Of a DNA stretch of 64,000 bases, positions 31,959 to 33,718 are shown piece by piece. A program made the translations under genes and the position numbers. Each line of letters opens with the position of its first letter. The first letter of the stretch is position 1. Below the pieces are notes generated by a model. That model was not told the DNA's origin. It saw nothing but the letters and a program-made list of their open reading frames with translations, and did no database searches. The stretch lies in the NCBI RefSeq assembly GCF_056712565.1, contig NZ_CM160072.1; one strand, 5' to 3'.

Positions 31959-33718
31959 ATGACATCGACGATGCATATGGACAGGGCCGATAAGAATAAA
32001 GTTGGCACCGTTGAAATTGAGGATCTACGGGTTATTCCGGTTATTTTTCTGCCCGGAGTCATGGGTTCAAACCTTATGGATAAGAAAGGAAAATCCATCT
32101 GGCGATATGATGACTCTATGAGTCTGATGGGCTGGTCACTACCTACATCAGGACCAAAAGAGAGGAAAAGATTATTGCATCCTGACAGGGTGGAGGTCGA
32201 TAATCGTGGGAGAATTCCCGCACCTCCGGATGCCCAAGAAAAACTTATTCAGTTAGGTCAACAATATCCGGAGGACCCATCCGATAAAGAAGCAATGGAT
32301 AATTACACTCAGGCAGTACGTGACATTTTGGATAATATAGAGCCAGAAGCGAAATTATTTGGTTCAAGAAAAGATCGCGGCTGGGGAGAGGTTGCAAATG
32401 CTAGCTACGGTTCCTTTCTCGATGTATTACAAACAGCATTGTACCGGGACAAACCTACAAAGAAAGGTGAGACGTTAAGTGCGACCTACCAGCAACTACT
32501 CGATGTACCTTTGGGTTTGGAGTATGGTCCTGACTCACTTGATGAAGAGTATCTTGAAGTCATAAGGTTGTATCAATTTCCGGTCCATGTCGTTGGCTAT
32601 AACTGGCTTGGTTCTAATATGCTCTCAGCAATCAGACTACAAGAACAGATCAAGAAAATTGTTGGAGGCTATCAAAAACGAGGAATGAAATGCCATAAAG
32701 TTATTCTGGTTACGCATTCAATGGGAGGACTAGTGGCAAGGTACTTTTCAGAGTGTCTTTCGGGGAATACGGATGTCTACGGTATTGTTCATGGCGTATT
32801 ACCATCAATTGGTGCTGCGGCGACATATACCCGAATGAAACGTGGAACTGAAAACCCAGAGTCAAATCCGGAAGGGTATGTTATCAGTCATATCTTAGGT
32901 CGTAATGCAGCTGAAATGGTAGCTGTTTTTTCCCAGTCGCCAGGACCAATGGAATTACTACCCATGAATGATTATGGTGAAGAGTGGCTTAATATTGTCG
33001 ATCGTGATGGTAGTACATTAACGCTCCCTAAAAATCTTCCCATTAAAGAAGGTATTGCCCCCGAAGAACGCACCTACGCTGAACTTTATCTAAATAGAGA
33101 AAATTGGTGGATGAGAATCTATTGAATCCTTTTAATACTTCATTAAATCAAAAGCAAATTGATACTGATTGGAATATATATGAAAATTTAATTACTGAGA
33201 GTGTCAATCCATTTCATAAGCAAATTGCTGGAAAATATCATATCAATACTTACTCTTTCTATGGGAGAGCGAAATTGGGAGATATTCCTGAAGCGCATTT
33301 AACGCAGGAAAATGTTCTTTGGAAAGGCTCATTATCAATGGGAAAAAAAAGTGATATATCTTTAGAACCAAAATTCATTGATGGTCGTCTTGATTTAAAT
33401 GAAGTTGGTAACATTAGAACTATTAAGGATGAATTTTCTCCTGAAGAACAGGCGTGGGAAATAAATACTGACGACGGTGATACATATGTTAAGATAGGAC
33501 AGCGTTTTACATTACGAGACTCTTGTGAAAACGGGGATGGTACAGTACCTCTTCGTGCAGGACAAATCGTACACAAGAACATCCTAGAGCGTTTGGCTGT
33601 ACAGGTTTCTCACGAGGCTGCTTATCGAAATCCCGTTAGTCAGGCATTTGCATTACGTTCTATTATAAAAATAGCTCAGGAGGTAAAAAAGGATGGTAAA
33701 ATGTCATACTCTGATTAA
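31959..33718 (+). pseudogene. VgrG-linked alpha/beta-hydrolase lipase effector (Tle-like), split by a frameshift near 33098-33104
   Basis: ORF 31911-33125 carries PGVMGSNL and VTHSMGG (GxSxG); overlapping ORF 33104-33718 in another frame carries GDGTVP and a downstream His; adding one A to the gaaaat run would fuse them. Confidence 0.6.

Follow-up and report, generated by a model that had tools for sequence, protein, structure and literature searches.

Locus layout and split of the tle4 gene

We analysed a 64,000-nt stretch of contig NZ_CM160072.1 (NCBI RefSeq assembly GCF_056712565.1), referred to as the window, which carries a complete Escherichia coli type VI secretion system 1 (T6SS-1) cluster. 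The gene that follows vgrG in this cluster, tle4, encodes a lipase effector and is divided between two overlapping open reading frames (ORFs). The features at the split are the following:

29459..31939, + strand: vgrG, 826 amino acids (aa), annotated as DUF2345 domain protein (annotation from identical genes); open and full length
31959..33125, + strand: tle4 fragment A (ORF A), Tle4 residues 1-384 followed by a 4-aa out-of-frame tail, MRIY
33104..33718, + strand: tle4 fragment B (ORF B), Tle4 residues 386/387-589, in the -1/+2 frame, starting at TTG 33104 or GTG 33107
33101..33110, + strand: remaining single copy of the 10-bp unit AAATTGGTGG and deletion junction, placed by alignment with UTI89, by a three-way alignment and at codon level

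ORF A begins with an ATG at 31959, 19 nt past the end of vgrG, and runs to a stop at 33123-33125, giving a product of 388 aa. It contains the motif PGVMGSNL (residues 32-39) and the nucleophile elbow THSMGG (residues 252-257), with the codon of the nucleophile Ser254 at 32718-32720. ORF B overlaps ORF A by 22 nt (33104-33125), its frame being open only from 33098, and carries GDGTVP with the catalytic Asp530 (codon 33536-33538) and SHEAAY with His555 (codon 33611-33613). The two products are identical to RefSeq WP_001350751.1 (388 aa, "esterase/lipase family protein") and WP_001331599.1 (203 aa, "hypothetical protein"), respectively. A preliminary description of this DNA had reported the two ORFs with the motifs PGVMGSNL, THSMGG and GDGTVP and a downstream His, and had noted that the catalytic triad is split. 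Re-reading of the window bore out each coordinate and motif that it gave: Ser254 lies on ORF A, Asp530 and His555 on ORF B.

In an alignment of 28 homologues (39-75% identity) His253-Ser254-M-G-G, Gly529-Asp530-G-T-V-P and His555-Glu556 are invariant, and the catalytic motifs of the window gene align with the matching motifs of Pseudomonas aeruginosa Tle4. No single polypeptide encoded in the window holds the whole Ser-Asp-His triad. As Ser is found on ORF A and Asp and His on ORF B, we regard the window gene as a Tle4 pseudogene and not as an intact member of the family.

Assignment to the Tle4 family

The intact form of the protein (589 aa, see below) matched P. aeruginosa Tle4 (PDB chain 4r1d_A) in a phmmer search with E=4e-44, and a profile of the 28 homologues matched the same chain with E=1.6e-77, covering chain residues 24-557. 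In the profile alignment the VILVTHSMGGLVAR elbow is identical, GDGTVP is paired with GDETVP and the His motif is matched. The Pfam matches near the elbow were weak (PGAP1, 6e-6; LCAT, 0.007), and a scan of NCBIfam contained no family for Tle4, Tli4 or a 378-aa neighbour, so that Pfam was used instead. An AlphaFold2 model of the intact UTI89 sequence (not of the fragments) reached a predicted local distance difference test score (pLDDT) of 89.9 and a predicted template modelling score (pTM) of 0.89. Its best PDB match by Foldseek was again 4r1d_A (E=4.4e-32, template modelling scores 0.65/0.73), which places it in the alpha/beta-hydrolase fold of Tle4. In this model the break after Trp384 lies in a coil flanked by helices 368-377 and 401-426, and thus between the nucleophile Ser254 and Asp530/His555.

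A large protein database contained 2547 homologues at E<=1e-10; essentially every one of the best 120 is a single chain of about 530-650 aa. The preliminary description had allowed that homologues might naturally be two separate proteins and had called for a comparison with intact ones. None among the best 120 of the 2547 was naturally bipartite, and the comparison confirmed the split as a lesion of a single-chain gene. The same description had taken the gene for a VgrG-linked alpha/beta-hydrolase lipase effector of the LCAT/PGAP1 type. This assignment held, with the family now placed as Tle4 by phmmer, profile and Foldseek; the linkage is given by the adjacent vgrG upstream, the complete T6SS-1 cluster and a Tli4 gene downstream. 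Presumably Tle4 is carried by the VgrG spike protein of the adjacent vgrG. Judged by its sequence, the window gene is a known Tle4-family effector at a known locus, in pseudogenised form.

The T6SS-1 of UTI89 and of TW-XM, an avian pathogenic E. coli (APEC) strain, has been described as carrying a Tle4/Tli4 pair in a vgrG-tle-tli-PAAR module (PMC6730261, PMC9860674). The Tle4 of UTI89 and TW-XM (WP_000204766.1; YP_542179 in Ma et al., 2014) is the same gene at the same locus in the same T6SS-1 module. Another known relative is P. aeruginosa Tle4/TplE (PA1510) with Tli4 (PA1509; PDB 4R1D for the lipase), which shows full-length homology, the same fold, the same elbow and matching GDxTVP and His-containing motifs, and whose cognate immunity protein also has Tli4_N and Tli4_C. 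This effector has been reported as an antibacterial phospholipase A1 (PMC9860674). The P. aeruginosa pair, at ~27% identity, is intact and linked to the vgrG2a of the H2-T6SS, whereas the window copy is frameshifted in both toxin and immunity gene. The next-best structural matches were lysosomal phospholipase A2/LCAT (PDB 4X90-4X97, 5TXF; Foldseek E about 1e-7). Together with the PGAP1 and LCAT matches they support the label "LCAT-like" of the preliminary description, although they share only the hydrolase core at 11-14% identity and are eukaryotic enzymes, not secreted toxins. Tle1 of enteroaggregative E. coli (Sci-1) and Tle3 of adherent-invasive E. coli LF82 and of CFT073 occupy the same T6SS-1 position in the same vgrG-tle-tli-PAAR architecture, but belong to other lipase families and have unrelated immunity proteins.

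A 10-bp tandem repeat reduced to one copy

In UTI89 tle4 is a single ORF of 1770 nt encoding 589 aa (WP_000204766.1). At the lesion UTI89 reads GAAAATTGGTGGAAATTGGTGGATGAG where the window reads GAAAATTGGTGGATGAG; the unit AAATTGGTGG is present twice in perfect tandem in UTI89 and once in the window, which amounts to a 10-bp deletion that splits the window allele into its 388-aa and 203-aa ORFs. This 10-bp indel is the sole difference between the two loci over the 3.7 kb from the end of vgrG to the PAAR gene, the nucleotides being otherwise 100% identical and the flanking vgrG, tli4 and PAAR genes the same. Every two-copy genome that was compared has the identical 10-nt insertion relative to the window, and the intact alleles read ...NRENWWKLVDENLL... 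at the lesion and encode 589 aa. Automated repeat finding in the window did not list the 10-bp tandem pair, which was confirmed by direct alignment and string matching.

In frame 0 the repeat unit is read as N-W-W (AAT TGG TGG) and in frame +1 as (K)-L-V (AAA TTG GTG G). As the same ten bases can be read in both frames, both remaining ORFs look complete: the leftover unit gives NWW in ORF A and LV in ORF B, and Lys385 is the one residue that the two ORFs together lack.

A 98%-identical allele (MB06172) and a 76%-identical allele (04-00955) both read NWW[KR]L[VI]DENLL at this site, and Trp383 and Trp384 are invariant across the 28 homologues. Since the related alleles, the invariant Trp-Trp pair and the single-chain homologues agree, sequence comparison shows that the two-copy, 589-aa form is ancestral. 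The 04-00955 allele uses different codons at the site and lacks the repeat; the 10-bp repeat is an accident of codon choice in one allele.

The preliminary description had instead proposed that one additional A would restore a single protein of 586 aa reading ...NREKLVDENLL.... This repair is arithmetically possible, but the intact alleles differ from the window by the 10-bp unit. We rejected a one-A homopolymer repair, as it would delete the invariant Trp383/Trp384 and as the A run at the site has only 4 bases.

Frequency of the two states

A megablast search with window positions 31900-33800 against 5,426 complete E. coli genomes returned two classes of near-identical match, one of 1901 nt at 100% identity and one of 1911 nt, with only one tle4 copy per genome. 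A 200-nt probe over the junction defined 135 complete E. coli genomes with this allele. One copy of the unit was present in 62 of them (100% match) and two copies in the other 73 (210-nt alignment); no other copy number was seen. The one-copy genomes include S88, DSM 30083 (= ATCC 11775), EV36, SF-468, MS7163, strain XM (extraintestinal pathogenic E. coli, ExPEC) and APEC O1/O2:K1:H7 strains. UTI89, IHE3034, PMV-1, BEN2908 and O2:K1:H4/H5 strains are among those with two. Exact copies of the 388-aa, 203-aa and 589-aa proteins are recorded on at least 1000 contigs for each protein.

An older frameshift in the immunity gene tli4

The gene downstream of tle4, tli4, is also broken, a point absent from the preliminary description:

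33693..34526, + strand: tli4 fragment A, 277 aa, Tli4 residues 1-262 followed by 15 out-of-frame residues; contains Tli4_N and the start of Tli4_C
34480, + strand: one-base T insertion in tli4, GATA[T]AAGAT, not present in the intact tli4 of BCE049 and MB06172
34495..34788, + strand: tli4 fragment B, 97 aa, Tli4 residues 268-364 with the rest of Tli4_C, starting at an ATG just past the frameshift; WP_001331597.1

In MB06172 and BCE049 tli4 encodes a single 364-aa protein, and on an intact homologue Pfam placed Tli4_N at 57-184 (4.8e-19) and Tli4_C at 232-362 (2e-12). A phmmer search of Tli4 against the PDB gave no match. The RefSeq name of WP_001331597.1 is "T6SS immunity protein Tli4 family protein". 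The inserted T causes a +1 frameshift after residue 262, inside Tli4_C, and is common to the window and UTI89. With a 61-nt probe the insertion was found in 129 of the 135 genomes, including every genome with the tle4 deletion; the six without it are BCE049, MB06172, SW07099, GMM060 and two others. UTI89 thus combines an intact toxin gene with a frameshifted tli4, and BCE049 has both genes intact in an almost identical locus. From the presence of the insertion in all deleted genomes and the intact pair of BCE049 we conclude that an intact pair came first, followed by the tli4 frameshift and then, in a single sublineage, by the tle4 deletion.

Both genes also contain an A8 homopolymer, at 33343-33350 in tle4 and at about 34267-34274 in tli4. 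These runs are one base shorter in the tle4 of E19035 and in the tli4 of IMT5155, which represents either further independent frameshifts or long-read homopolymer errors.

Origin and spread of the deletion

To place the deletion among related strains we assembled a matrix of single-nucleotide polymorphisms (SNPs) from the 40-kb loci of 15 genomes and the window (16 loci). It contains 13 parsimony-informative sites with zero conflict or homoplasy. Intact genes are found in three clades: UTI89 with SF-173; E12053 with FY26, NCTC11151, AH20K059 and B20123; and IMT5155 with BCE049. One nested clade, formed by the window and E18055 and then SF-468, is uniformly deleted. The derived alleles of the intact clades are all lacking in the other deleted strains, XM, DSM 30083 and S88, so that the matrix agrees with a single deletion event and no reversal. 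The resolution of the matrix is low in that, apart from the deletion itself, no SNP unites all deleted strains. Among the deleted strains in the matrix there were zero SNPs in tle4. In another genome with the deleted allele, AH21I008, an ISEc52 element lies somewhere within the matched tle4 region, the match falling into two pieces and "esterase/lipase family protein" being listed twice; this is as expected for a dead gene.

In HH97 (NZ_CP116409.1) the T6SS-1 backbone is divergent, with 1-9% mismatches per kb relative to the window, yet a tract of 5.86 kb matches window positions 31116-36979 with zero mismatches. The tract spans the 3′ end of vgrG, the deleted tle4, the frameshifted tli4, the PAAR gene, the 378-aa gene and the start of tssM. 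An identical tract in a divergent backbone indicates that the doubly broken module was imported by recombination. Cassettes of the vgrG-tle-tli-PAAR type have been reported to be exchanged between T6SS-1 backbones (PMC6730261, PMC9860674), and the window cassette in HH97 behaves like the exchanged Tle1 and Tle3 cassettes. By sequence, then, the deletion allele is identical by descent, yet its distribution is not strictly clonal. HH97 has a second near-identical tract at about 41917-44500.

The surrounding T6SS-1 cluster

Around the tle4-tli4 module the window holds the following:

20282..50026, + strand: complete T6SS-1 cluster, tssB to vasL, all core genes open and full length (coordinates transferred from the ExPEC XM annotation)
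26802-29447: tssH/clpV, preceding vgrG
35252..35512, + strand: PAAR-domain protein, closing the exchangeable vgrG-tle-tli-PAAR module (weak match to NCBIfam T6SS_PAAR_dom; RefSeq) and inside the HH97 tract
41622-44528: second effector module, a 525-aa PAAR-domain protein (PAAR-toxin, 41622-43199) followed by ORFs of 184 aa and 147 aa (DUF1240)

Lesions elsewhere in the cluster were compared between 12 genomes with a two-copy tle4 and a broken tli4 and 10 loci with the deletion. Such lesions were present in 7 of the 12 and in 1 of the 10 (Fisher p=0.03); the strains are phylogenetically non-independent, and several of the lesions are 1-nt indels and thus possible assembly errors. IMT5155 lacks 2 bp of tssK and has a stop in tssJ as well as an IS66 insertion. 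In E12053 tssG is frameshifted and an IS3 element has inserted, in ST95-32 vgrG contains a stop, in E19035 tle4 is separately frameshifted within its A8 run, and in EC21GDE043 tssC is frameshifted. AH20K059 and B20123 share the same IS3 insertion between tli4 and PAAR. Five strains had no cluster lesion despite their two-copy tle4 (UTI89, IHE3034, SF-173, FY26 and NCTC11151). The one deleted locus with such a lesion is that of Z0117EC0054, in tssH. The association is no more than suggestive. It would agree with selection for silencing a toxin left unopposed once immunity had been lost, but a rarely expressed module could equally well have decayed neutrally. We also considered effector activation that depends on the immunity protein, as for Enterobacter Tle6, as a reason for the decay, and rejected it because the Tle6 paper places Tle4 among the intrinsically active lipases.

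Some further variation was seen in the cluster. The window has two private SNPs. One, an A-to-C change at 26359 in hcp (26119-26610), gives Thr81Pro in Hcp and is absent from the 15 compared loci; the other, at 43329, replaces Asp19 by Val in the 184-aa ORF that follows the PAAR-toxin. The same ORF is interrupted by an IS3 insertion in E12053. At its boundary the T6SS island has three tRNA-Met genes in tandem (window 19350-19646); most strains have three, IMT5155 and BCE049 have one and ST95-32 has five.

Discussion

We consider it very probable that the window carries a pseudogenised Tle4 allele, produced by a one-off 10-bp deletion after an older frameshift in tli4 and spread both clonally and by recombination. 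Decay of the gene was one of the possibilities raised in the preliminary description, and it is the one that the 10-bp deletion and the population and family data support. A literature search for a described tle4 pseudogene in sequence type 95 (ST95) turned up nothing relevant. The ancestral gene encoded one 589-aa protein, which would have been loaded on the adjacent VgrG and neutralised by periplasmic Tli4. In this gene the codons for N-W-W-K-L-V form a perfect tandem repeat, AAATTGGTGG AAATTGGTGG, and slipped-strand mispairing or recombination between the copies may have removed one of them. Translation of the shortened gene would shift frame after Trp384 and stop 4 codons later. The 388-aa product keeps Ser254 without Asp530 and His555 and should therefore not be able to act as a lipase, from which we infer a loss of enzymatic activity. 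The deletion probably happened once, in an ancestor of the ST95 complex that already had the +1 frameshift in tli4, and would then have been inherited clonally by strains of the O1/O2/O45:K1:H7 type, while on at least one occasion recombination transferred the vgrG'-tle4-tli4-PAAR cassette to an unrelated T6SS-1 backbone. The earlier loss of immunity may have favoured or permitted the loss of the toxin. Ordinary decay of a toxin/antitoxin-like pair is the most likely description of these events.

Three other explanations would leave the gene functional or the split unreal. As the lesion lies in a tandem repeat and as both states are common (62 against 73 genomes), a phase-variable switch in which the repeat reversibly expands and contracts has to be considered, and slippage-based phase variation had been suggested in the preliminary description. 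Contingency loci have a hypermutable repeat and reversible states that both occur in close clones; here only one or two copies were ever seen in 135 genomes, the clades are uniform in state, the 16 loci point to a single event without homoplasy and the repeat is absent from the 76%-identical allele of 04-00955. With a single copy left there is no template for re-expansion, so that phase variation is not supported and we hold it to be very improbable. The 22-nt overlap and the -1 shift that would be needed to rejoin the frames could also point to programmed ribosomal frameshifting or transcriptional slippage. In the 27-nt span in which frame B is open (33098-33125) we found no X XXY YYZ heptamer and no homopolymer longer than A4, and recoding is therefore unlikely. 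The two-frame layout is moreover not conserved, the best 120 of the 2547 homologues being single ORFs, and stems from a recent deletion; we rate recoding slightly below even phase variation. Frameshifts are a common type of assembly error, and a homopolymer sequencing error had been proposed as well. The difference is however a 10-bp unit and not a homopolymer error, and it is identical in 62 complete genomes from many laboratories and platforms, including S88, DSM 30083, EV36 and ExPEC XM. Each fragment protein, moreover, occurs on at least 1000 contigs. An artefact of sequencing or assembly is therefore excluded for all practical purposes, and it is the least probable of the explanations considered.

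Evidence against pseudogenisation comes from published work on TW-XM. As recounted in PMC5874247, which cites Ma et al. (2014), this strain kills delta-tle4 delta-tli4 sister cells, the killing depends on both Tle4 and Hcp1, and Tle4 is detected and secreted. The TW-XM genome is CP025328.1 (PMC12955052), and this genome (ExPEC XM) has exactly the split tle4 of the window (WP_001350751.1 and WP_001331599.1) along with the split tli4; in NZ_CP025328.1 (ExPEC XM = APEC TW-XM) the doubly frameshifted region is at locus positions 17510-20339. Several features of the locus weigh in the same direction. The two ORFs together encode all residues but Lys385, the break lies in a coil of the confidently predicted model, and start codons are present at both the tle4 and the tli4 junction. 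In tle4 the TTG and GTG starts of ORF B lie 16-19 nt before the stop of ORF A, and coupled translation of the C-terminal fragment is conceivable. The genes of the T6SS-1 machine are open both in the window and in 9 of the 10 deleted strains sampled, and another lineage, HH97, has imported the broken cassette by recombination. Tle4 might thus still work in two pieces, ORF B being translated by termination-reinitiation coupling and the pieces being reassembled and exported, with a two-piece Tli4 still giving protection. If so, a working split Tle4/Tli4 would reconcile the TW-XM phenotypes with the genome and would represent natural fragment complementation in a T6SS effector-immunity pair. Against this, no naturally split homologue is found among the best 120 of the 2547, the break abuts the invariant Trp383-Trp384, ORF A gains a 4-aa foreign tail, and only a weak Shine-Dalgarno-like AGAG precedes ORF B. 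The C-terminal piece would also need to be co-loaded on VgrG and co-exported. The deleted alleles, having no tle4 SNPs among them, are too young for a selection test. The conflict with TW-XM has three possible readings, namely that the split proteins are functional, that the deletions had polar effects or that the stocks differ. Polar effects of the deletions on tssM/tssA, which lie downstream, and on the immunity gene that belongs to the second effector (the PAAR-toxin; immunity gene at 43274-43828) could explain the phenotypes. A functional split toxin is in our judgement unlikely, if clearly less so than the three explanations above, and we favour pseudogenisation.

Taken together, the gene is an effector pseudogene of a routine kind, found in ExPEC lineages that have been sequenced heavily, namely those of the ST95 complex with S88, DSM 30083 (the type strain of E. 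coli) and APEC O1/O2:K1:H7. RefSeq/PGAP annotates the tle4 fragments as two ordinary proteins and not as one frameshifted pseudogene. Since the fragments are thus listed as normal proteins, on at least 1000 contigs, functional Tle4 will be overcounted in inventories of effectors. As TW-XM (CP025328.1) carries both frameshifts, the founding experiments on E. coli Tle4/Tli4 need re-examination: either polar effects explain them, or the split proteins work. The nested order, immunity first and toxin second, and the varied T6SS-1 lesions in lineages that keep the toxin gene make this locus a small natural case of the decay of an effector-immunity pair, an instance of ordinary gene decay with some value for annotation and re-interpretation.

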